NCBI GenBank assembly: GCA_026396275.1
Contig: JAPLXC010000004.1
Span: 1,193 to 65,192 of the forward strand
Direction: 5' to 3'
DNA: 64,000 nucleotides
Origin: Candidatus Moraniibacteriota bacterium
GTDB taxonomy: Bacteria; Patescibacteriota; Minisyncoccia; Moranbacterales; JAPLXC01
Part shown: in pieces, positions 4,748 to 22,896 of the stretch
Position numbering within the stretch: the first letter of the stretch is position 1
Layout of the letters: each line of letters starts with the position of its first letter
Notes under the pieces: generated by a model
What the model saw: the letters and a program-made list of their open reading frames with translations, nothing else
The model's database searches: none
What the model was told of the DNA's origin: nothing
Made by a program: the position numbers and the translations under genes

Positions 4748-5962
4748 ATGAAATTTTCCGATATTTTCAAACTTTCAACCAGAATGTTCAAAGCGAGAAC
4801 TTCGCGCACGCTTCTTACGATTTTAGGCATGAGTATTGGAATCGGTGCTATTTTATTCCTGGTATCGCTTGGATACGGCTTGCAGAAAACCTTACTTAAT
4901 AAGATCACTACTTCCGACGCGCTGCTTACTCTGGATGTGACTGAAGCCAAATCAGCAACCGTTTTTCTTAATCGCGAGACCCTCAAAGTGATGGCAGAAA
5001 TGGAAGGGGTAGGGGAAGTAAGTCCCGCTTATCAGTTGAACGCCCAGGGACGCCTTGGCGATCTTTCAGCTGATTTTTCTGCCGTAGTGGTAAAGCCGTC
5101 ATTTCTAAAATTGGGGGGATATCGGGTAAGTCAGGGGCGCTTACTGAATGACGAAAGTCCTCAGGAAATTGTGGTTACTTCAACGGTCTCCCGCGTATTT
5201 GGGAAAAATGCGGATGAGATAATTGGAAAAGAAATAAAGTTTAGTTTTTTGGTGCCCGAGCAGGACAAAACAGGAGAAGTATCAAAAAATTCGCAAGTCA
5301 AGACAAAACGGGTGGAATCCGACAAAGCATACGTAGTAGCCGGCGTCATTGAAGGGGAGGATAGCATTATATATATCAATTCCAAGTCCCTTGATAATTT
5401 TTCCATTGATCATTTTAGCCAGGTTAAAGTGAAATGCAGAACGAATCAGGCGTTGGGGTTAGTTCGGGATCAGCTCATTAGCCAGGGATTTTTAGTATCG
5501 GCACTTTCCGATACGGTTGAGGAAGCAAACAAAGTGTTCAGGGCCATTCAGATTGTGCTAATGCTCTTTGGAGTTGTTGCTCTTGTAGTAAGCGCTATCG
5601 GGATGTTTAACACAATGACTATTGCTCTTTTGGAGCGGACGGAGGAAATCGGGATAATGAAGTCCATTGGCGCTTCCAATGCGGGAATATCTTTAATATT
5701 CGTTATGGAATCGGCTATTATGGGATTTTTGGGAGGAGTATGCGGTGTTTTTATCGGCTTTGTCAGCGGGGAGGTTTTTAATGGACTGATAAATTTTATT
5801 GCCCGGCGTTTTGGAGGAGAATCAGTGGACTTGTTCTACATTCCTTTGTGGTTCGTGCTACTTATCATTCTTTTTGCCGGTTTTGTTGGCTTTTCCACCG
5901 GGTTTATTCCGGCCAGACGGGCAAGCCACATTGATCCTCTGGAAGCTTTGAGGTATAAGTAA
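4748..5962 (+). CDS. FtsX/MacB-family ABC permease with a large extracytoplasmic domain
   Basis: One N-terminal TM, then a ~220-aa loop, then three C-terminal TMs. Translationally coupled to the ATPase (4-nt gap). Confidence 0.8.
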   Translation: MKFSDIFKLSTRMFKARTSRTLLTILGMSIGIGAILFLVSLGYGLQKTLLNKITTSDALLTLDVTEAKSATVFLNRETLKVMAEMEGVGEVSPAYQLNAQGRLGDLSADFSAVVVKPSFLKLGGYRVSQGRLLNDESPQEIVVTSTVSRVFGKNADEIIGKEIKFSFLVPEQDKTGEVSKNSQVKTKRVESDKAYVVAGVIEGEDSIIYINSKSLDNFSIDHFSQVKVKCRTNQALGLVRDQLISQGFLVSALSDTVEEANKVFRAIQIVLMLFGVVALVVSAIGMFNTMTIALLERTEEIGIMKSIGASNAGISLIFVMESAIMGFLGGVCGVFIGFVSGEVFNGLINFIARRFGGESVDLFYIPLWFVLLIILFAGFVGFSTGFIPARRASHIDPLEALRYK

Positions 5963-5966
5963 AGCT

Positions 5967-6806
5967 ATGAAAATTCTTAGCGGAAAAAGAGCAGCTCTAA
6001 AAATATTAAATAATCTTGAAGTCAACATCAGGAAATTACCCGCCGCTCCCGGACTGGCAGTGCTTTTAATTGGAGACGATAAACCCTCACATTTATATGC
6101 CCGCTTAAAACAGGAAGCAGCAAAAAAAATAGGAGTTCGTTTTTATCTTGTTAAATTTAAAGAGAATGCTGCCGAGAGAAAAATTATTGAGAAAATATCA
6201 GTGCTTAACAAAAACGGAAAAATAAACGGAATTATAGTTCAGCTTCCACTGCCCTCAAAATTCAACGCACGGAGAATTATCAAAGCCATTGATCCGGAAA
6301 AAGACGTAGACGGATTTCATCCGGAAAATATGAAGCTGTTTTTGAAAAGCAAAGAAAGATTCTGGCCGGTTTTTCCGCGGGCAATTGTTAAACTGATTGA
6401 AGAAAGTCGTCTTAAACTTTTAGGAAAAAAAGCAGTGGTTTTAGCAAATTCGCAAAGTTTCGGGAAGATAATGGTGGCAGCTTTAGGGAAGAAAAAAATA
6501 AGAGCCAAATATATCTTGTTTAAAAAAGTTAAGGAGAATGTTAAGTTAATCAAAAAAGCAGACATCATTGTGGTTGCAATGGGAATTCCAAATCTCGTAA
6601 AAGGGAAAATGATTAAAGAGGGTGCAGTAGTAGTTGACGGAGGAATTACGAAAAGAGGAAAGAAGGTACTAGGAGATGTTGATCGAGAGTCCGTAAAATA
6701 CGTGGCTTCCTATCTTTCCCCGGTTCCCGGAGGAGTTGGGCCAGTAACGGTAGCCTGCCTTTTTTGGAATGTTTACTTAGCCACTAAAGAACAACTCAAG
6801 GATTAA
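5967..6806 (+). CDS. folD: Bifunctional methylenetetrahydrofolate dehydrogenase/cyclohydrolase
   Basis: FolD family motifs: LLIGDDKPSHLY, GIIVQLPLP and a C-terminal GGVGPVTVA. Confidence 0.85.
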   Translation: MKILSGKRAALKILNNLEVNIRKLPAAPGLAVLLIGDDKPSHLYARLKQEAAKKIGVRFYLVKFKENAAERKIIEKISVLNKNGKINGIIVQLPLPSKFNARRIIKAIDPEKDVDGFHPENMKLFLKSKERFWPVFPRAIVKLIEESRLKLLGKKAVVLANSQSFGKIMVAALGKKKIRAKYILFKKVKENVKLIKKADIIVVAMGIPNLVKGKMIKEGAVVVDGGITKRGKKVLGDVDRESVKYVASYLSPVPGGVGPVTVACLFWNVYLATKEQLKD

Positions 6807-6937
6807 GAGATTAAGTAAAAAACTGATTGTTCCAGATAACTACGATCGCTGCCAAGTAGAATAATTGTTTTTGGCAAAGTCGGCTTTATAAAATCTTCCT
6901 TTTGACGGAGGGTTTTTTTGTTGATAAACTTAATAGT

Positions 6938-9889
6938 ATGGAAAAATACAACTCGCGGAAAATAGAGAAAAAGTGGCAGAAGAAATGGGAAGAAAGCGGA
7001 ATTTACAAGAATTACAAAAAAGACAAGAAATTCTACGCTCTTGATATGTTTCCTTATACCTCCGGCGAGGGTTTGCACGTGGGCCATCCGAGAGGATACA
7101 TCGCCACTGATGTCGTTTCCCGTTTCAAGATGCTTCAGGGAGCAAGCGTTCTTCATCCGATGGGATGGGACGCTTTTGGCTTGCCAACAGAAAATTACGC
7201 CATCGAGCATAAAATTCACCCGCGGATCGTGACCGAAAAAAATATTTCTGTTTTTAAAAAACAGCTTCAAATGTTTGGTTTTACCTATGATTGGGATCGG
7301 GAGATTAATACAACGGATCCGGGATATTACAAATGGACGCAGTGGATTTTTTTGAAAATGTTTGAAAAAGGACTGGCTTATGAGTCGAACGAGCCGATTA
7401 ACTGGTGCCCCTCCTGCAAGACAGGGCTGGCGCTGGAGGATTTGGAAAAAGGATTATGCGAACGTTGCGGAACGCAGGTAGTGCAGAAAAAAATGAGACA
7501 GTGGGTTTTAAGGATGACAAATTATGCTGATCGTCTGCTTTACGATCTGGACAGCGAAGATCTAGATTGGGAGGAGCAGATTTTAGAACAACAAAGAAAC
7601 TGGATCGGGAGAAGCGAGGGAACAGAGTTCAAGATGCCAGTTGTCATTGCGAGCGAAGCAAAGCAATCTCGTACAGAAGAATCAAATTCAGAGATTGCCG
7701 CGTCGCCTTCGGCTCCTCGCAATGACATCTATATTGAAGTTTATACCACCCGTCTGGATACGGCCTTTGGGATGACATATGCAGTAGTAGCACCGGAACA
7801 TCCAATCGTCGCTTCGCTTCTCAAAATCAAAAATCAAAAATCAAAAATCAAAAATATTGAAGAAATTAGAAATTATATAATCCGGTCACAGAATAAAACA
7901 GAGCTGGAAAGAATGGAGGCAAAGGAAAAAACAGGAATGGAAATTAAAGGAATAAAAGTTATAAATCCTTTCACTAATGAGGAAATTCCGTTATTTGTTG
8001 CCGATTATGTTTTAGGCCACTACGGCACCGGCGCAGTGATGGCTGTGCCAGCACACGATGAAAGGGACTGGGAATTTGCGAGGAAATATAATTTACCCAT
8101 AAAACAATCAATCGTTCCAAATTACAGAGAATATGAAACTACAATAAAGACCCTAAATGCACTTAGAGAAATCTATAGAGCAGCTGAAAAAAAAGACTTA
8201 AGATTTTGGCTACTTGGCGGACTAGCTTGCGCTTTTTATGCGGGAATAATTTATAGGGAACACAATGATTTAGATTTAATTACCGAAAATGAAAATGACC
8301 GTATTAAAATGTTTCAATTATTGGAAAATTTGGGATTTAAAAAAATAAAGGAGAAAAAAATATCAGAAAATCTCATCAACTTTGTTTATCAACGAGGAGA
8401 AATTGAAGTTGATATTGGACCCAATCAAGGCGAATTTGGTTTGGCTGGTGATTTTGAGGAAGATATTAAATATCTAGGAGAATACCAGTCAAGAGTATTA
8501 AGCAAACGATTTGTCAAAAGTTTTAAAGAATATCAGTTGAAGACTAGAGATGAAAAAAAAGACCAAATAGACGTGGAATATTTAAGTGGTAAAGTTTTGA
8601 TTGATGATGAAGTATTGGTTAATTCTGAAAAATATTCAGGACTAACTTCCCAAAAAGCCCGAGAGGAAATGGCAAAGTGGCTGGAGAAACAAAGAATCGG
8701 CAAGAAAAAAATAAATTACAAAATGCGTGACTGGGTGTTTTCCAGACAGCGTTACTGGGGAGAACCCATTCCCATAATTCACTGCGAGAAATGCGGTGCA
8801 GTAGGGGTGCCGGAGAAGGAATTGCCTGTTACTTTGCCGGATGTTGAAAGTTACGAGCCGACCGGGACGGGCGAATCGCCACTGGCGAATATCAAAGATT
8901 GGGTGAACACCACTTGTCCCAAATGCGGCGGACCGGGAAAAAGAGAAACCAATACTATGCCTCAATGGGCGGGCTCCTCCTGGTATTATCTTCGCTACAT
9001 TGATTCAAAAAATGAAAAGGAACTTGTTGGAAAAAAAGAAGAAAAAAAGTGGATGCCGGTGGATCTCTATGTGGGCGGGATAGAACACGCTACTCGTCAT
9101 CTTCTCTACGCACGATTCTGGCACAAGTTTTTATACGATATTGGTGTTGTTTCCACAAAAGAGCCGTTTAAAAAATTAGTTCACGTCGGGCTCATTGGCG
9201 GAGAGGACGGCAGAAAAATGTCCAAGCGCTGGGGCAATGTCGTCAGTCCTAACGACGTGATAGAACAATTCGGAGCGGACTCAATCAGATTGTATGAAAT
9301 GTTTATGGGGCCTTTCACCCAGGGTATTTCATGGAGTACGGCAGGGGTAAGTGGGATGAGGAGATTTTTGGAGAAAGTATGGAAATCGCAAAATCGAATT
9401 ATGAATTACGAATCAGGAATTAAGAATAACGTTGAAAATTTATTGCATAAGACAATCAAAAAAATAACAGAAGATATAGAAAATTTCCGATTTAATACCG
9501 CACTAAGCTCGATGATGATATATATTAATCAACTTGAGAAACAAAAGAAAATATCCATGATTCATTATTCACAATTCCTAATTCTATTGAGTCCCTTCGC
9601 CCCCCATATCGCCGAAGAGCTATGGGAGAAACTAGGACACAAAGAAAGCATATTCCGGCAGTCCTGGCCGAAGCATAATCCGCAATTGATAAAAGACGAG
9701 GAAATAGATCTGGTAATCCAAGTCAATGGAAAAGTCCGCGACACTGTTAAAGTATCAGCCGATATTTCCGAAGATGAAGCGAAAAAACTAGCCTTTGAAA
9801 ATCAAAAAGCAAAAACCTTTACAAAGGAAAAAGTAATTAAAAAGGTCATTTTTGTAAAAGGCAAGTTAATTAATATCGTAGTTTCTTAG
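6938..9889 (+). CDS. leuS: Leucyl-tRNA synthetase with an embedded ~165-aa nucleotidyltransferase-like domain and two short repeat-derived insertions
   Basis: HIGH motif (HVGHPRGY), KMSKR, and the zinc ribbon CPSCK...CERCG are present. Likely start is the second Met (MEKYNSRKIEKKW). An extra segment with W..GG...R.H.D.D motif lies between the CP1 domain and the body. Confidence 0.9.
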   Translation: MEKYNSRKIEKKWQKKWEESGIYKNYKKDKKFYALDMFPYTSGEGLHVGHPRGYIATDVVSRFKMLQGASVLHPMGWDAFGLPTENYAIEHKIHPRIVTEKNISVFKKQLQMFGFTYDWDREINTTDPGYYKWTQWIFLKMFEKGLAYESNEPINWCPSCKTGLALEDLEKGLCERCGTQVVQKKMRQWVLRMTNYADRLLYDLDSEDLDWEEQILEQQRNWIGRSEGTEFKMPVVIASEAKQSRTEESNSEIAASPSAPRNDIYIEVYTTRLDTAFGMTYAVVAPEHPIVASLLKIKNQKSKIKNIEEIRNYIIRSQNKTELERMEAKEKTGMEIKGIKVINPFTNEEIPLFVADYVLGHYGTGAVMAVPAHDERDWEFARKYNLPIKQSIVPNYREYETTIKTLNALREIYRAAEKKDLRFWLLGGLACAFYAGIIYREHNDLDLITENENDRIKMFQLLENLGFKKIKEKKISENLINFVYQRGEIEVDIGPNQGEFGLAGDFEEDIKYLGEYQSRVLSKRFVKSFKEYQLKTRDEKKDQIDVEYLSGKVLIDDEVLVNSEKYSGLTSQKAREEMAKWLEKQRIGKKKINYKMRDWVFSRQRYWGEPIPIIHCEKCGAVGVPEKELPVTLPDVESYEPTGTGESPLANIKDWVNTTCPKCGGPGKRETNTMPQWAGSSWYYLRYIDSKNEKELVGKKEEKKWMPVDLYVGGIEHATRHLLYARFWHKFLYDIGVVSTKEPFKKLVHVGLIGGEDGRKMSKRWGNVVSPNDVIEQFGADSIRLYEMFMGPFTQGISWSTAGVSGMRRFLEKVWKSQNRIMNYESGIKNNVENLLHKTIKKITEDIENFRFNTALSSMMIYINQLEKQKKISMIHYSQFLILLSPFAPHIAEELWEKLGHKESIFRQSWPKHNPQLIKDEEIDLVIQVNGKVRDTVKVSADISEDEAKKLAFENQKAKTFTKEKVIKKVIFVKGKLINIVVS
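7643..7726. mobile_element. MITE-like palindromic element family A (GTCATTGCGAGCGAAGC...CTCGCAATGAC), 84 nt, in-frame inside leuS
   Basis: Terminal inverted repeats gtcattgcgag / ctcgcaatgac. Encodes VIASEAKQS... in the leuS frame and SLRGAEGDAAIS on the opposite strand, the usual signature of this repeat family. Confidence 0.6.
7823..7855. repeat. (AAAATCA)x4 heptamer tandem repeat, in-frame in leuS
   Basis: Direct read. Encodes KIKNQKSKIKN. Same repeat occurs in rnhB and the GT4 gene at 48093. Confidence 0.7.
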
Positions 9890-16814: not shown

Positions 16815-17831
16815 ATGAATATAAAGGTAAGGAAGATAAGGGAAGATGCTAAAGTTCCAATTAGGGCATCTGATGGTGCAGTAGGATATGATGTTTTTGC
16901 TTCAAGGGTACTGGATAAATTTACCAAGGAAGTAATTCAGGATTTGCCGGTAGAAATACTTGGTGGCGCTAGTGTATTAATCGGTATTGGAGTAAAAATG
17001 GCTGTGCCCTGGCCGTATGAGTGCCAAGTTAGACCCAGGAGTGGTCTTGCGAGTAAATTTGACATCGAACTTTCTAATTCTCCAGGAACAATAGATCCCG
17101 ACTTCAGGGGCGAAGCAGGTGTTCTTTTGAGAAATAGAGGAAAAGAAACTTTTGTTGTGGAAAAGAATATGAGAATTGCTCAATTAATTTTCTCTAAAGT
17201 CGAAATCCCGATTTTAGAAGAAACGAAAGAGCTCCCTGCAACTAGGAGGGGAACTGGCGGTTTTGGATCAACAGGACTTCATGGAGATGGATTAGGGACT
17301 GATGAATATAATGAATACATAAAAGAAATGGATAGGTATTATATGAGAGTGGTTCTTGCAGTAGCGGATCGCTCCACATGTGTCAGGGGGGTAAAAAAAG
17401 TAAATGGTAAATATGAAAGAGATAAAAAGGGAAAATTGGTTGGCCAGAATCGCAGATTCGGTTGTGTGATTGTGAAGAATGATAATATCCTTGCTCAAGG
17501 TTTTAATGACCAATATTACGGTTCTCCAAAATGTGCTGACGCAGGATGTTTGAGGGAGGAGTTGAATATTCCCTCTGGTACGCAAATTGAAAAATGCAGA
17601 GCAATGCATGCCGAGTGGTGGGCATTCACTAATGCAGGTAAAATGGATAGCTCGCCGACACTTAAAGGTGCTACTGTCTATGTCAATGCGGAACCATGCG
17701 AAATATGCGCAAAGATGATTGTTGGTTTTGAGATTGATACAGTTGTTTTACTAAAAGGTATTTATCCAACTAATGGCATCAGGATTTTAAAAGAAGGAGG
17801 AGTGAATATAAGGTATATTGAAATTAATTAA
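16815..17831 (+). CDS. Fusion protein: N-terminal dUTPase-like domain plus C-terminal dCMP/cytidine deaminase zinc-binding domain
   Basis: N-terminal half has dUTPase motifs (GYDVFAS, GTIDPDFRGE, RRGTGGFGSTG). C-terminal half has the deaminase signature HAEWWA...PCEICAKMI. Confidence 0.7.
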   Translation: MNIKVRKIREDAKVPIRASDGAVGYDVFASRVLDKFTKEVIQDLPVEILGGASVLIGIGVKMAVPWPYECQVRPRSGLASKFDIELSNSPGTIDPDFRGEAGVLLRNRGKETFVVEKNMRIAQLIFSKVEIPILEETKELPATRRGTGGFGSTGLHGDGLGTDEYNEYIKEMDRYYMRVVLAVADRSTCVRGVKKVNGKYERDKKGKLVGQNRRFGCVIVKNDNILAQGFNDQYYGSPKCADAGCLREELNIPSGTQIEKCRAMHAEWWAFTNAGKMDSSPTLKGATVYVNAEPCEICAKMIVGFEIDTVVLLKGIYPTNGIRILKEGGVNIRYIEIN

Positions 17832-17944: not shown

Positions 17945-18469
17945 ATGGCTAAAAAAGCTTTAAAAAAGAAAAATAAAAAGAGCGAGGAAAAGTATATTCG
18001 TCCGTCTTGGGATGAGTATTTTTTAGATCTAGTAGAAGCTGTTGGAAAAAGAGCTACCTGTGATAGAGGGAGAACAAGCTGTATAATTGTTCGCGAAAAA
18101 AGAATTCTTTCCACCGGTTATGTCGGTTCACCAATCGGAGCCAAGCACTGCGACGATGCGGGGCATGAGATACACACGGTTATCCAAGAGGATGGCACTC
18201 AATCTCGGCATTGCATCAGAACCAGCCACGCGGAGCAGAATGCTATTGCCAATGCTGCCAGATTCGGTATGCCTCTGGAAGGCGGAACACTTTATGCCCA
18301 TATGGCTCCCTGCTACACTTGCGCCAAAATGATTATAAACTCCGGGATAAAAAGAGTGGTCTGCCGGGTTGATTATCATGGCGCCAAACGCGCTAAAGAA
18401 ATTTTCAAGGAATGCGGGATTGAATTTGAACAGATTGAAGATAAAATGCAAACTTATAAAGATATGTAA
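17945..18469 (+). CDS. dCMP deaminase (ComEB-type)
   Basis: HAEQNAI...PCYTCAKMIINSGIKRVV. Confidence 0.8.
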   Translation: MAKKALKKKNKKSEEKYIRPSWDEYFLDLVEAVGKRATCDRGRTSCIIVREKRILSTGYVGSPIGAKHCDDAGHEIHTVIQEDGTQSRHCIRTSHAEQNAIANAARFGMPLEGGTLYAHMAPCYTCAKMIINSGIKRVVCRVDYHGAKRAKEIFKECGIEFEQIEDKMQTYKDM

Positions 18470-18531
18470 TTCAAACGTACTACTTTTTCTGGTGTATGCT
18501 AAAAAAGCAGCACGCTTACAAAAAGTCAAAA

Positions 18532-19083
18532 ATGAGAAAAATAATCGCCATACTTGGATTACCCGGAGCTGGTAAAACCGAAGTTATAAATTATCTTATA
18601 AAAAAATACAACTGGCCGAAAGTTTATTTTGGCGATGTTACTTTTGATGAAGTTAAAAGGCGCGGATTGGAAATAAATGAGAAAAATGAAAGAACGGTGC
18701 GAGAAGATTTGCGCGCAAAATATGGAAGGTTGCATTATGCGTCGCAGGTAATAAAAAAGATTGAAGCGTTGCCGTCCGACACAAATGTCCTTGTGGAGAG
18801 TTTATACGACTGGAGGGAATATCTTTTTTTCAAAGAAAAATTTGGAAAGGAATTTATGACAATTGCGACTTATGCTTCGCCTGAAACTAGGTATGAGAGG
18901 CTGTCAAAAAGGCCAGAAAGGCCATTGACTCCGGAAGTAGCCCAAAGCCGGGATTATGCTCAAATTGAGAATCTTTTTCAAGCCGGACCAATTGCGATGG
19001 CGAATTATACCATAAATAATGAAGGTACATTTGAAGAACTTTATAGTCAGGTTGATGAGATAATAGAAAATATAAATAAATGA
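18532..19083 (+). CDS. P-loop deoxynucleoside monophosphate kinase-like protein (resembles phage T4 gp1-type dNMP kinase)
   Basis: Walker [12 protein letters not shown]. The C-terminal [16 protein letters not shown] resembles, from my memory of the T4 gp1 sequence, its C-terminal segment. The ORF could start earlier, at 18496. Confidence 0.5.
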
Positions 19084-19874
19084 AACAATATCTAGATTTA
19101 TTGCAAAAAATAATGGAAGAAGGGGTTAACAAAGAAAATAGAACCGGTATTGATACAAGAAGTATTTTTGGTTATCAATTGCGTTTTAATCTGGAAGAAG
19201 GATTTCCGCTTCTTACGACCAAAAAAATGCATCTGAAGTCCATTATTCACGAACTAATTTGGTTTTTGAAAGGCGAAACGAATATAAAATATCTTCACGA
19301 CAATGGAGTAACGATCTGGGACGAGTGGGCGAATGAAAAAGGGGAACTCGGTCCGGTTTATGGCTATCAATGGCGGCACTGGAAAAAATATGAGGGAGGG
19401 GAAGTTGACCAGATCAGCGAGGCGATTGAAAAAATAAAAAACAAGCCAAATGACCGAAGAATAATAGTGAGCGCCTGGAATGTTGGGGAAATTGAAAAAA
19501 TGGCGCTCCCTCCCTGCCATTTATTATTTCATTTTTATGTAGCCGATGGAAAATTATCCTGTCTAATGTATCAGCGAAGCTGTGATACTTTTCTGGGAGT
19601 GCCGTTCAATATTGCATCTTATGCACTTCTTACTATGATGTTTGCGCAGGTTTGCAGTTTGAAACCGGGAGAATTCGTACATATTTTGGGTGATACCCAT
19701 ATCTATCATAATCATTTTGATCAAGTGAAACTGCAATTAAGCCGGGAACCAAAAAAACTGCCGACTATGAAAATCAATCCGAAAGTGAAAAATATTTTTG
19801 ATTTTAAATACGAAGATTTTACACTGGAAGGATATGATCCCCATCCGGCGATTAAAGCGCCAATCGCGGTTTAG
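19080..19874 (+). CDS. thyA: Thymidylate synthase
   Basis: [51 protein letters not shown]. Confidence 0.9.
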
Positions 19875-19878
19875 AAAT

Positions 19879-19934
19879 GTCACTCCGGGCTTGATCCGGA
19901 ATCTAATTAGATTCTGAAACAAGTTCAGAATGAC
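19879..19934. mobile_element. MITE-like palindromic element family B (GTCA[CT]TCCGG...CCGGAATCTA...GAATGAC), thyA-folA spacer
   Basis: gtcactccgggcttgatccggaatctaattagattctgaaacaagttcagaatgac. Nested hairpins. Confidence 0.55.
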
Positions 19935-19947
19935 ATATTAAAATGTA

Positions 19948-20436
19948 ATGAAATCGACTATCTCTATCATCGCAGCTATTGCCGAAAAAAATCGGGCTAT
20001 CGGCAAAGATAATAAATTGCTTTGGCATATTCCGGAAGACCTAAGACGTTTTAAAAATCTCACCACTGGACACGCAATAATAATGGGGCAAAAAACTTTT
20101 GAGTCGCTTGGAAAACCTCTGCCAAACCGCACCAATATTGTTATTTCGAACAATCCCGATTTTAATCCCCAAAATGTTATTGTGACAAGATCAATTGAAG
20201 AATCTCTGAAAAAAGCTAGGGAAATAGAGAAAGAAGAAATATTTATTTGTGGCGGAGGATTAATTTACCGACAATTTCTACTACTGGCTGACAAATTGTA
20301 TTTAACTATTATTGAAGGAAACTTTGAAGCTGATACTTTTTTTCCAGATTATTCGGAGTTTAGTAAAATTGTTAAAGAAGAAAAAAGTTCAGATGAGAAA
20401 TATAATTATAAATTTGTGGAGTTAGTCAGAGAATAA
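19948..20436 (+). CDS. folA: Dihydrofolate reductase
   Basis: ISIIAAIAEKNRAIGKDNKLLWHIPEDLRRFKNLTTGHAIIMGQKTFESLG. Confidence 0.85.
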   Translation: MKSTISIIAAIAEKNRAIGKDNKLLWHIPEDLRRFKNLTTGHAIIMGQKTFESLGKPLPNRTNIVISNNPDFNPQNVIVTRSIEESLKKAREIEKEEIFICGGGLIYRQFLLLADKLYLTIIEGNFEADTFFPDYSEFSKIVKEEKSSDEKYNYKFVELVRE

Positions 20437-20440
20437 AAAT

Positions 20441-21055
20441 ATGAAAAAAAACAAGAAACGGAGATTGTTCATTGTCTTTGAAGGACTTGATGGTTCCGGC
20501 CAGACAACGCAAATAAACTTATTAGAAAAATATCTAAAATTAAAAGGAAAAAAAGTGCATATGACAGCTGAACCATCAAGCAGTTTAATTGGCGGATTAA
20601 TTCGGGCAGTTTTGACGCATCATTGGAAATTGAGCAACACCGGATTACAGCTTCTCTATTGCGCTGACAGGGCGCATCATCTTGAAACAGAAGTGTACCC
20701 GGCGCTTGCGAAAGGAAATATCGTGTTATCAAGCCGCTACTTTTTTTCAACCATCGCCTTTGGCTCTTTGAATAATGACACTAGATGGCTGGAAAAAATC
20801 AATGAAAAATTTCCAAAACCTGATGTCACTTTTTTCATCAATGTTTCTCCAAAAGAGTGCATTAAAAGATTAGATCTTTCAAGATTCAGAAAAGAAATTT
20901 TTGAAAAGGAGGAAAAAATGGGAAAGGTCTTAAGAACCTATATTAAAATAGGTAAAAACAAAAAATATAAAAATTTCTTTACTATCAACGGGGAACAGCC
21001 CGTCGAAAAAATTTCACAGGATGTAATTAAAATTATTGACAAATTTATTAGATAA
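20441..21055 (+). CDS. tmk: Thymidylate kinase
   Basis: P-loop FEGLDGSGQTTQ and the DR..H LID region. Confidence 0.85.
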   Translation: MKKNKKRRLFIVFEGLDGSGQTTQINLLEKYLKLKGKKVHMTAEPSSSLIGGLIRAVLTHHWKLSNTGLQLLYCADRAHHLETEVYPALAKGNIVLSSRYFFSTIAFGSLNNDTRWLEKINEKFPKPDVTFFINVSPKECIKRLDLSRFRKEIFEKEEKMGKVLRTYIKIGKNKKYKNFFTINGEQPVEKISQDVIKIIDKFIR

Positions 21056-21129
21056 TATTACACTAAAAAGCCGATAATTTTGTAAGGAAGAAATAAAAGC
21101 TTTTTGAAAATTTAAGGAGGTGGGAGAAG

Positions 21130-21852
21130 ATGATTTTTGAAGATAGTAATACTGTTATGGTTAATGGCCGGATTGATGATGGTTACAGAGAAGCAATGCT
21201 TCTTTGCGTGAGAAATGGCTGGGATTTTGTAGTAAAAGGCGGGAGTTATGTCGGGCAAATTAGAAAACAGTTGGAAAATGTCCAGATAATAATAGGGGAT
21301 CCGAGTAAAAGACCGCTGGCTCCAGTTTTGCCGCCTGGAATTCCCGCCAGTACCAGTGATGAAAAAATAGATAAATATTTTGCCGAATATCTGATGAGCA
21401 CCGAGGTCAAAGAAAATGAGGAATATACCTATGGCACCTACATTGTTCCACAAGTTCCGAAAATAATCGAAATATTGAATAAGGCAAAAGGAAACACTAA
21501 TCAGGCCTGCATAAGCATCGGGGATATTAATTCAATTAATCTTCCTGATCCACCCTGTTTAAAGCTTATAAGCTTTAAGGTTGTAAAAGGAAAATTGATT
21601 ATGACAGTTTTTTTTAGATCTTGGGACTTATATGCAGGTCTGCCAGAAAATCTGGGAGGGCTGCAACTACTCAAAGAATTTGTTTTTGCTCATCTCGATT
21701 TTGAGTGCTCTGACGGGAAAATGATTGCTTATAGCGACGGGCTTCACCTCTATGAACAGTACTTTGATTTAGTAAATGTTCTGAATGTGGATAAAGTTGT
21801 TATTAGCAAAATAGCGGCAAAAGATAAGGAGGAATTTTCAAAAACTCTTTAG
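21130..21852 (+). CDS. Divergent thymidylate synthase-superfamily paralog (candidate pyrimidine nucleotide hydroxymethylase/methylase)
   Basis: Catalytic-core motifs retained: PPCLKLISFKV (PPC nucleophile), GKLIMTVFFRSWDLYAGLPEN (compare QRSxDxxLGxPFN), DGLHLY. The N-terminal ~95 aa are unrelated to ThyA. Confidence 0.5.
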   Translation: MIFEDSNTVMVNGRIDDGYREAMLLCVRNGWDFVVKGGSYVGQIRKQLENVQIIIGDPSKRPLAPVLPPGIPASTSDEKIDKYFAEYLMSTEVKENEEYTYGTYIVPQVPKIIEILNKAKGNTNQACISIGDINSINLPDPPCLKLISFKVVKGKLIMTVFFRSWDLYAGLPENLGGLQLLKEFVFAHLDFECSDGKMIAYSDGLHLYEQYFDLVNVLNVDKVVISKIAAKDKEEFSKTL

Positions 21853-21916
21853 TTGCAAAAAGGTCGACATCCGTCGGCCTTTATTTTTTTGACCAGTATG
21901 ATAAGATAAAATTGAT

Positions 21917-22474
21917 TTGAAGACAAGCCATTTTATGAAAAGGAGAAATATCGAAGTTGAAATTAGGAGTTTTATTTCCAAAGAGGAATATGATGAATTA
22001 CTGAAATTTTTTGAAGAGAGAGGAAAGCTAATTAGCAAAGACAAGCAGGAAACTTATTATTTTAAAGGACTGTGGGATCTGCGGATCCAAAAGAATAATT
22101 TTTATTCAAAGATCTGGTTCAAGAAAGGAAAAATTCATGACGACTTCCGGGAAGAAATTGAAATAAAATTTGATAGCGGTGATTTTAATGAATTAAAAAA
22201 ATTGTTTGATGCTCTTGGTTATAAGGTCGATATAAAATGGCTGCGAACTAGACATACTTTCAGATGGCAGGGAATTACAGTAACAGTTGATTTTACCAAA
22301 GGATACGGCTATATTATTGAGCTGGAAAAAATGACAAGGAGAATAGAAAAGGAAAAAGTAGTCAAGCTACTAAAAGGAAAGTTAAAAATGCTTAGCATTC
22401 GAGAAACGCCGCGGGAGGTGTTTGAGAAAAAATTTCAGTTTTATAAGAAGAATTGGGAAAAACTAGCCAAATGA
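21917..22474 (+). CDS. CYTH-domain protein (triphosphate tunnel metalloenzyme family)
   Basis: N-terminal EVEIR acidic motif and beta-rich size fit CYTH. Weak. Confidence 0.45.
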   Translation: MKTSHFMKRRNIEVEIRSFISKEEYDELLKFFEERGKLISKDKQETYYFKGLWDLRIQKNNFYSKIWFKKGKIHDDFREEIEIKFDSGDFNELKKLFDALGYKVDIKWLRTRHTFRWQGITVTVDFTKGYGYIIELEKMTRRIEKEKVVKLLKGKLKMLSIRETPREVFEKKFQFYKKNWEKLAK

Positions 22475-22896
22475 AAATTTTTGTCAAAAAACTTGAGCCC
22501 GAGGCAAAGATTCCTTCCTACGCCCATCCCGGAGACGCCGGAATGGATTTGTATTCTCTGGAAAACGTGAATATAAAACCAGGAGAAAGAGTTTCTTGCC
22601 GAACCGGAATTGCGATACAAATCCCGGGTGGCTATGCCGGGCTCATTTGGGACAAAAGCGGAATTGCTTGGAATGGTGGAATTAAAACAGTAGCAGGAGT
22701 AATTGACAGTGGTTATCGGGGTGAAGTCGGAATTGTTCTTGTTAATTTAGGTCATAAAGATTATAAAATAAACAAAGGCGACAAGATTGCCCAAATGCTT
22801 ATACAGAAAGTTGAGGATCCGGAAATTATTGAAGCAGAGAACCTAGAAGAAAGTGCCAGGGGCAACGGAAGATTTGGAAGCACAGGAGTAAGCTGA
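22471..22896 (+). CDS. dut: dUTP diphosphatase
   Basis: AGVIDSGYRGEVGIVLVN and RGNGRFGSTG. Its ATGA start overlaps the preceding stop. Confidence 0.9.
   Translation: MKIFVKKLEPEAKIPSYAHPGDAGMDLYSLENVNIKPGERVSCRTGIAIQIPGGYAGLIWDKSGIAWNGGIKTVAGVIDSGYRGEVGIVLVNLGHKDYKINKGDKIAQMLIQKVEDPEIIEAENLEESARGNGRFGSTGVS

Follow-up and report, generated by a model that had tools for sequence, protein, structure and literature searches.

Thymidylate synthesis usually takes one of two forms: the thymidylate synthase (TS) ThyA works together with dihydrofolate reductase (DHFR), or the flavin-dependent enzyme ThyX is used. A separate group of short proteins is described by the NCBIfam model TIGR03283 as methanogen-type ThyA, of which we take MJ0757 of M. 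jannaschii to be an example. The ThyA superfamily also includes enzymes with other products, such as the dCMP hydroxymethylase (dCH) of phage T4, gp42, the CMP hydroxymethylase MilA, the phage dUMP hydroxymethylases and the flavin-dependent 5-hydroxy-dCMP synthases. The biochemistry of methanogen-type ThyA is poorly defined (PMC9012536). For the other groups, residue rules have been published in the numbering of Escherichia coli ThyA (Ec): Asn at Ec 177 reads uracil and Asp reads cytosine, D169N is a mark of flavin-dependent 5-hydroxy-dCMP synthases (both PMC8670742, PMC13326640), and at Ec 143 a bulky hydrophobic residue correlates with methylation and D/E with hydroxymethylation (PMC13326640). 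Here, we analyse a gene, X, at positions 21130..21852 of a 64,000-nucleotide stretch of DNA (the window) from a Candidatus Moraniibacteriota bacterium (contig JAPLXC010000004.1), in which X and all other features given by position lie on the + strand. X is a real, functional and strongly conserved member of a distinct, uncharacterised short branch of ThyA, and we lean towards seeing in it a core dUMP-to-dTMP synthase of the organisms that carry it, with possibly unusual cofactor use.

X is an intact open reading frame encoding 240 amino acids (aa) plus a stop, and its product is about 17-22% identical to canonical ThyA. The preliminary description had recognized it as another TS-fold enzyme, highly diverged, that accompanies a canonical thyA; this holds, both genes belonging to one nucleotide cluster with folA and tmk lying between them. 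Canonical models see only part of the protein: PF00303 scores 31.2 bits (gathering cut-off, 24.3) over residues 107-216 only, TIGR03284 (30.9 vs 108.35) and NF002497 (36.7 vs 327) stay below their cut-offs, and phmmer against PDB sequences returned thymidylate synthases only, aligned over the C-terminal half. The N-terminal third had been described as an unrelated 95-aa replacement, a view that three results refute. Residues 14-213 match positions 7-199 of the 201-position TIGR03283 profile (E = 1.5e-21, 76.9 bits). The sensitive profile-profile search that had been proposed gave a ThyA-fold match, in which hhalign placed a 110-member family profile on E. coli and window ThyA with 98.5% probability over 217 columns (X 16-240 = Ec 1-239; the E. 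coli sequence used has 264 aa and is collinear with window ThyA). Finally, AlphaFold2 predicts a single, compact domain (mean pLDDT, 95.5; pTM, 0.91). The TS fold thus spans the whole X protein, and its N-terminal third is homologous to ThyA.

The short type forms a large family. A homologue search gave 465 matches. Its top 120 have identities of 57-93% and lengths of about 240 aa, and those with a name are annotated as thymidylate synthase from Patescibacteria. When 1.84 billion cluster representatives were searched with a profile, 2302 matched at E <= 1e-3, of which 162 reached E <= 1e-30. A common signature runs through 101 sequences that represent clusters at 50% identity: G38-S39, R45, Y99, Y101, N124, P141-P142-C143-L144, R163-S164-W165-D166, P172, N174, G204, H206 and Y208. 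TIGR03283 is the best NCBIfam match for all 101 (45-110 bits; best E = 1.2e-31), and none of them reaches its cut-off of 174.55 bits. Likewise, when divergent representatives were scanned for methanogen-type ThyA, all fell below the TIGR03283 cut-off, the two named ones being from the Candidate Phyla Radiation (CPR). Given scores so far below the cut-off, the short clade is better regarded as a sister of methanogen-type ThyA than as a member of it. The two resemble each other in a collinear alignment over nearly the full model, in the same short format of about 200-240 aa and in the lack of the canonical C-terminal extension. They differ in their hosts, those of the X clade being bacteria and phages, which to our knowledge lack methanopterin.

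The motifs named in the preliminary description lie where it had placed them: the catalytic Cys in a PPC context, FFRSWD as the RSxD block, and GLPEN. The DPPCL motif (21547..21561) contains the nucleophile Cys143 (Ec C146), with Asp140 at the position of Ec L143 and Leu144 at that of Ec H147. FFRSWD (21610..21627) provides Arg163, Ser164 and Asp166 (Ec R166, S167 and D169), Trp165 replacing C168, and GLPEN (21637..21651) provides Asn174 (Ec N177), with Glu173 in place of Ec F176, a contact of the folate p-aminobenzoate. HLY (21745..21753) contains His206 and Tyr208, the counterparts of Ec H207 and Y209, which are the ligands of the deoxyribose 3'-OH. Further upstream, EEYTY (E97-Y101; 21418..21432) has Y99 and Y101 invariant; Y99 is the equivalent of Ec Y94, the C5-proton base, and E97 is a possible stand-in for Ec E58. 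The N-terminal beta-strand GSYVGQIR (G38-R45; 21241..21264) is matched by hhalign to Ec LSIFGHQMR, G38 being invariant and S39 and R45 invariant or nearly so among the 101 representatives.

Compared with Ec ThyA, C143, R163, S164, D166, N174, H206, Y208 and Y99 are kept, and each is invariant or nearly so in the 101 representatives and in about 100 loci. The nucleophile Cys in particular is present in all 101 aligned cluster representatives and throughout the approximately 100 homologues that the fetched loci supplied; a tabulation of 109 representatives shows only two exceptions, both atypical sequences. The position of Ec Asn177 and T4 Asp179, which the preliminary description had singled out for inspection, is occupied by Asn174, invariant in the 101 representatives and in all fetched loci. 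The changes are R126/R127 to N/Q, L143 to D, H147 to L, C168 to W and F176 to E. They leave R166 as the only kept member of the four-Arg phosphate clamp (R21, R126', R127' and R166): in the alignment, Asn124-Gln125 (21499..21504) replace Arg126-Arg127, and R21 aligns with D32 in the lower-confidence N-terminal part. Arg61 (21310..21312) lies in a Pro-rich loop that replaces the Ec E58 helix and is placed by hhalign opposite Ec 51-63. All 66 Bacillota homologues, 20/22 viral ones and 9/10 from CPR have it, and it is a candidate substitute phosphate ligand. The last approximately 25 residues of Ec ThyA, a C-terminal tail that closes over the folate, are absent, the hhalign alignment ending at Ec 239 of 264. 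Asp140, which lies at the entrance to the active site, is found in 10/10 CPR, 22/22 viral and 54/66 Bacillota homologues, and the position is H, N, S, T or another residue elsewhere in the family. By the published residue rules, the X protein would be uracil-reading and not a hydroxylase, with a hydroxymethylase-like residue at the 143 position, though the 143/177 rule was derived from phage enzymes of the canonical lineage, outside which the X clade lies. Roles of Ec residues are those of the established TS structural literature and of PMC8670742 and PMC13326640. Overall, the X family resembles canonical ThyA in fold, nucleophile, dUMP ligands, the Y94 equivalent and pathway neighbourhood, and differs from it in lacking the R126/R127 clamp, the E58 helix, the folate-closing tail and the linkage to DHFR.

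One subgroup departs from this pattern. In Peptococcaceae/Desulfocucumaceae metagenome-assembled genomes (MAGs; loci L076-L083), the homologues are only 34-37% identical and carry S164V, H206N, Y208R, N124V and Q125K. They retain Cys143, Arg163, Asp166 and Asn174, and it may be that a different sugar-phosphate moiety is bound.

We examined gene neighbourhoods at 107 related loci, each reaching as far as 8 kb to either side; the loci were retrieved by two exact peptide patterns, and the sample therefore represents the close part of the family. A scan of species-representative genomes gave 78 loci, hosted by Patescibacteria/Saccharibacteria, many Bacillota MAGs (Dethiobacter(ia), Syntrophomonadaceae and plain Bacillota/Firmicutes), the divergent Peptococcaceae subgroup and a few other phyla. 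Two gene orders recur in CPR: nusG-rplK-(dCTP or dCMP deaminase)-tmk-X-argS-ileS, and dCMP deaminase (dCD)-kinase-[canonical TS]-tmk-X-dUTPase-gatB. The commonest CPR neighbour of X is tmk, adjacent in 10/13 loci, and in two loci (L004 and L105) the stop of X overlaps the start of the dUTPase gene. In Bacillota, about 35 loci have the order yacL-ispD-ispF-cysE-cysS-X-rlmB-yacP-sigH-tuf, and X lies directly upstream of the anaerobic ribonucleotide reductase gene nrdD in seven. In one Dethiobacter MAG (L047, 8720-11872), X is directly followed by an NrdD of 1050 aa with a weak LAGLIDADG_3 match, probably an intein. A literature search for a thyX gene placed between cysS/mrnC and rlmB in other Clostridia gave no report of one. 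DHFR was found in the 107 loci only in L105, beside a canonical ThyA, as in the window, and ThyX once (L004).

Further features come from the family members themselves. In P0154 (422 aa), a natural fusion, a short TS domain at residues ~4-213 precedes a thymidine kinase domain at 244-418 (PF00265). Inteins with LAGLIDADG homing endonucleases interrupt P0151, P0160, P0175, P0200 and P0224, the last of which (975 aa) apparently has two. Inteins typically reside in essential enzymes of replication and nucleotide metabolism.

Phage copies of X occur in twenty IMG/VR loci and several phage-like contigs (L001-L003 and L106), 52-68% identical to the window protein, and lie among replication and recombination genes. 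X stands alone there, without other genes of its pathway, which is the usual position of auxiliary TS genes in phages. The 50,697 isolate phage genomes of INPHARED contained no close X homologue, giving C-terminal, canonical-type matches only. Mean identities between the CPR, phage and Bacillota copies (52-56%) are close to the within-group means (61-66%), which suggests strong constraint or exchange between the groups, possibly via phages. On one phage-like 113-kb contig (L001, 8001-11565; L002, 439-4003), the X homologue P0085 is directly followed by Methyltransf_21, a P-loop protein (faintly Zeta-toxin-like) and Amidoligase_2, and this may be a pyrimidine hypermodification cassette. Amidoligases are known from putative clusters for thymidine hypermodification (PMC8989533).

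The window is a cellular chromosome of Patescibacteria type, with tgt, leuS, glmS, uppP, two tRNAs, nusG, rplK, rplA, the nucleotide cluster, gatB and miaA. The nucleotide cluster begins with a dUTPase-dCMP deaminase fusion (16815..17831; 338 aa, with dUTPase, PF00692, N-terminal and deaminase, PF00383, C-terminal), followed by a stand-alone dCMP deaminase (17945..18469; PF00383), a core gene of the cluster; both are dUMP suppliers. Next come a P-loop nucleotide kinase (18496..19083; AAA_17/18, with a weak archaeal (d)CMP kinase match), the canonical ThyA (19080..19874; 264 aa, the same numbering as E. coli; PF00303, 430.6 bits; NF002497, 474.6 vs a cut-off of 327), its partner DHFR (folA, 19948..20436; PF00186, 185.9 bits), thymidylate kinase (tmk, 20441..21055; PF02223, 149 bits) and X, 1.25 kb downstream of thyA. 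A dUTPase gene follows at 22453..22896 (PF00692, 120 bits). With the fusion, the stand-alone dCMP deaminase and this second dUTPase, the dUMP-supplying functions of the cluster are duplicated.

The cluster is best compared with its two closest relatives. L105, whose X is 93% identical to that of the window, has the order SHMT-dCD-kinase-ThyA-DHFR-tmk-X-dUTPase-gatB (SHMT, serine hydroxymethyltransferase). In L004, with X 78% identical, ThyX stands in place of ThyA and DHFR; this ThyX (5852-7204) has 450 aa, about twice the usual length, and may result from a tandem duplication or an insertion. The dN/dS of X between window and L105 is 0.042. Against L105 and L004, respectively, gatB is 82% and 78% identical, the P-loop kinase 34% and 79%, and tmk 35% and 89%; the stand-alone dCMP deaminase is 88-90% identical to both counterparts, and the ThyA and DHFR of L105 are 74% and 75% identical to those of the window, L004 having no DHFR in its cluster. 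The mosaic region 18496-21055 points to repeated recombination or horizontal gene transfer inside one operon. X is constant and constrained while the canonical slot varies; in this recombining cluster, X thus appears as the core and the canonical synthase as the variable part. The ThyA-DHFR module of the window is variable and was probably acquired horizontally. Horizontal acquisition of thyA in Patescibacteria has been reported (PMC12455944). According to a Tn-seq supplement, folA and a thyA of 313 aa, the sole annotated TS, flank tmk-dcd in the cultured Saccharibacterium S. epibionticum, and environmental Saccharibacteria carry tmk-X-dcd at a comparable place. The comparison suggests mutual displacement of analogous genes.

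A role as thymidylate synthase agrees with the kept dUMP ligands, the pterin-binding Asp and the linkage to dUMP suppliers, tmk and nrdD, as well as with the thymidine kinase fusion, the inteins, the housekeeping positions and the reciprocal pattern with ThyA and DHFR. From the observed fold, residue conservation, purifying selection, neighbourhoods and fusions, we infer the substrate, donor and product, and roles for Arg61 and Arg45. In the reaction we envisage, Cys143 would add to C6 of dUMP, held by Arg163, Ser164, Asn174, His206 and Tyr208, with Arg61 and Arg45 probably replacing the lost R21/R126'/R127' part of the clamp. C5 would then attack a methylene-pterin donor positioned by Asp166, and Tyr99 would take the C5 proton. 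Reduction of the exocyclic methylene would give dTMP, to be phosphorylated by the adjacent Tmk. Given that the folate-tail contacts, the closing C-terminus and the DHFR linkage are absent, X may not oxidize tetrahydrofolate as canonical ThyA does.

Several points weigh against a dTMP synthase. Asp140 occupies the Ec L143 position, where D/E correlates with hydroxymethylation (PMC13326640). Parts on which canonical hydride transfer depends are lost or changed, namely R126/R127, F176, the E58 helix and the C-terminal tail. X is also strongly constrained beside a canonical ThyA or ThyX, and the two enzymes could be non-redundant. X as the sole TS is known at the scale of loci with flanks of <=8 kb. 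Finally, neither the short clade nor, in the literature, methanogen-type ThyA (PMC9012536) has a well-defined in vitro reaction.

The alternative that survives best, although we consider it unlikely, is that X is a dUMP hydroxymethylase, in which water would add to the exocyclic methylene, Asp140 admitting or activating it. The resulting 5-hydroxymethyl-dUMP (5-hmdUMP) would be phosphorylated and put into DNA or processed further, with canonical ThyA making dTMP in parallel. Asn at Ec 177 together with Asp at Ec 143 is the published signature of a uracil substrate and a hydroxymethyl product, and T4 dCH and MilA, both among the top structural matches of the X protein, lack the C-terminal tail as the X family does; the acidic residue at the Ec L143 equivalent is likewise shared with X. 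That X stands beside a canonical TS that is less constrained, that the window cluster looks doubled (two dUTPases, two dCMP deaminase domains and two kinases), and that in the L001/L002 phage lineage X precedes a methyltransferase, a P-loop protein and Amidoligase_2 (cf. PMC8989533) would also fit. On the other hand, T4 gp42 and MilA have Asp at Ec 177 where the X family has Asn, and X does not group with the pyrimidine hydroxymethylases at the sequence level, PHROGs matches being to generic TS families over the C-terminal half only. An acidic residue at position 140 is not universal in the family. The context differs as well: T4 gp42, MilA and the phage dUMP hydroxymethylases belong to phage-modification or antibiotic clusters and X to a cellular housekeeping context, where most loci have no TS-fold gene other than X close to dcd/tmk or nrdD. 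A fusion to thymidine kinase exists in one member, and X occupies the place that ThyA and DHFR take in the cultured Saccharibacterium. No genes for dTTP/dTMP removal, a dedicated dNMP kinase, 5-HMUDK, AADT or glycosyltransferases were found in the window or in 22/24 viral loci, L001/L002 being the exceptions, and we know of no bacterium with 5-hydroxymethyluracil in its DNA.

An improbable second alternative is that the ThyA fold here supports other cofactor chemistry, either DHFR-independent methylation with reduced flavin or another reductant, or flavin-dependent C5 hydroxylation as in AfhB of phage HY126 (PDB 9iqu/9iqc) and RB69 gp48. These 5-hydroxy-dCMP synthases, of a length (217-234 aa) similar to that of X, are its best structural match. 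The missing folate-tail contacts and closing C-terminus would agree with it, as would Trp165, which replaces Ec C168 beside the cofactor-binding Asp. So would the linkage of DHFR to X, among the 107 loci, only where a canonical ThyA is present; absence of DHFR from loci without canonical ThyA fits a hydroxymethylase, a non-folate redox enzyme or a synthase that does not oxidize its pterin alike. Identity to AfhB and gp48 is just 15%, and both of their exchanges, the hydroxylase-diagnostic D169N and N177D, are absent from X, which keeps a nearly invariant Asp166 and N174. The conserved Asp166 rather fits a pterin donor. Moreover, hydroxylation needs O2, and the hosts (CPR, Dethiobacteria and the nrdD context) are, as far as is known, anaerobes.

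The remaining explanations fare worse. The preliminary description had suggested that one carbon might be transferred to a different pyrimidine nucleotide (dCMP, CMP or UMP). Such enzymes exist in the ThyA superfamily, MilA being a top structural match, and three of the four phosphate-binding Arg are not conserved. Against this stand the invariant Asn174 at the site that discriminates uracil from cytosine, the kept deoxyribose ligands His206 and Tyr208, and neighbours that all make or use dUMP/dTMP (dCMP/dCTP deaminase and dUTPase); the suggestion is thus disfavoured and very improbable, and a cytosine or ribonucleotide substrate was rejected. To a redundant, decaying or non-catalytic thyA paralogue, which the fully canonical ThyA 1.25 kb upstream might suggest, we give almost no credence: it is contradicted by the conservation data (the low dN/dS, an identity to the L105 orthologue above that of gatB or ThyA, invariant catalytic residues and the 2302 representative clusters), and X has its own Shine-Dalgarno sequence and terminator.

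These signals flank the gene closely. A strong Shine-Dalgarno sequence, AAGGAGGTG (21114..21122), lies 8 nt before the ATG of X. A terminator-like hairpin (21859-21882, with a T-run to 21892), the best in the region, begins 7 nt past its stop and has a 10-bp stem with five GC pairs. The promoter-like TTGACA-17-TACACT (21036..21064) is only a 10/12 consensus match, and promoter-like sites in the region were no more numerous than in shuffled sequence. An Rfam scan of the window detected two tRNAs only, with no riboswitch near the nucleotide cluster. Between X and the dUTPase gene lies a CYTH-domain (triphosphate tunnel metalloenzyme) gene (21917-22474), whose last 22 nt overlap the start of the dUTPase gene; it is missing in the syntenic relatives L105 and L004, where X overlaps dUTPase directly. 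Elsewhere in the window, the leucyl-tRNA synthetase (6902-9889, 995 aa) has a weak extra aminoglycoside nucleotidyltransferase-like match (PF10706, residues 421-484) just past its editing domain.

A broader proposal, which we regard as possible but doubtful, is that the short clade as a whole is not a folate-oxidizing methylase but a cellular dUMP hydroxymethylase or a ThyA-fold synthase with reducing equivalents from a source other than tetrahydrofolate. If the former were true, some CPR bacteria and Dethiobacteria, together with their phages, would make 5-hydroxymethyl-dUMP; the latter would explain why X itself never travels with DHFR. Either outcome would bear on the reaction of methanogen-type ThyA.

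Databases label this large and strongly conserved short clade simply "thymidylate synthase". Many ultra-small CPR bacteria and alkaliphilic Firmicutes appear to use it as the core enzyme of their dTMP pathway, and their phages shuttle it. Once its reaction is defined, metabolic reconstructions could be corrected, claims about folate dependency in CPR among them; knowing it would also test the L143 rule used to predict DNA modifications from phage genomes, and might explain the related enzyme of methanogens.

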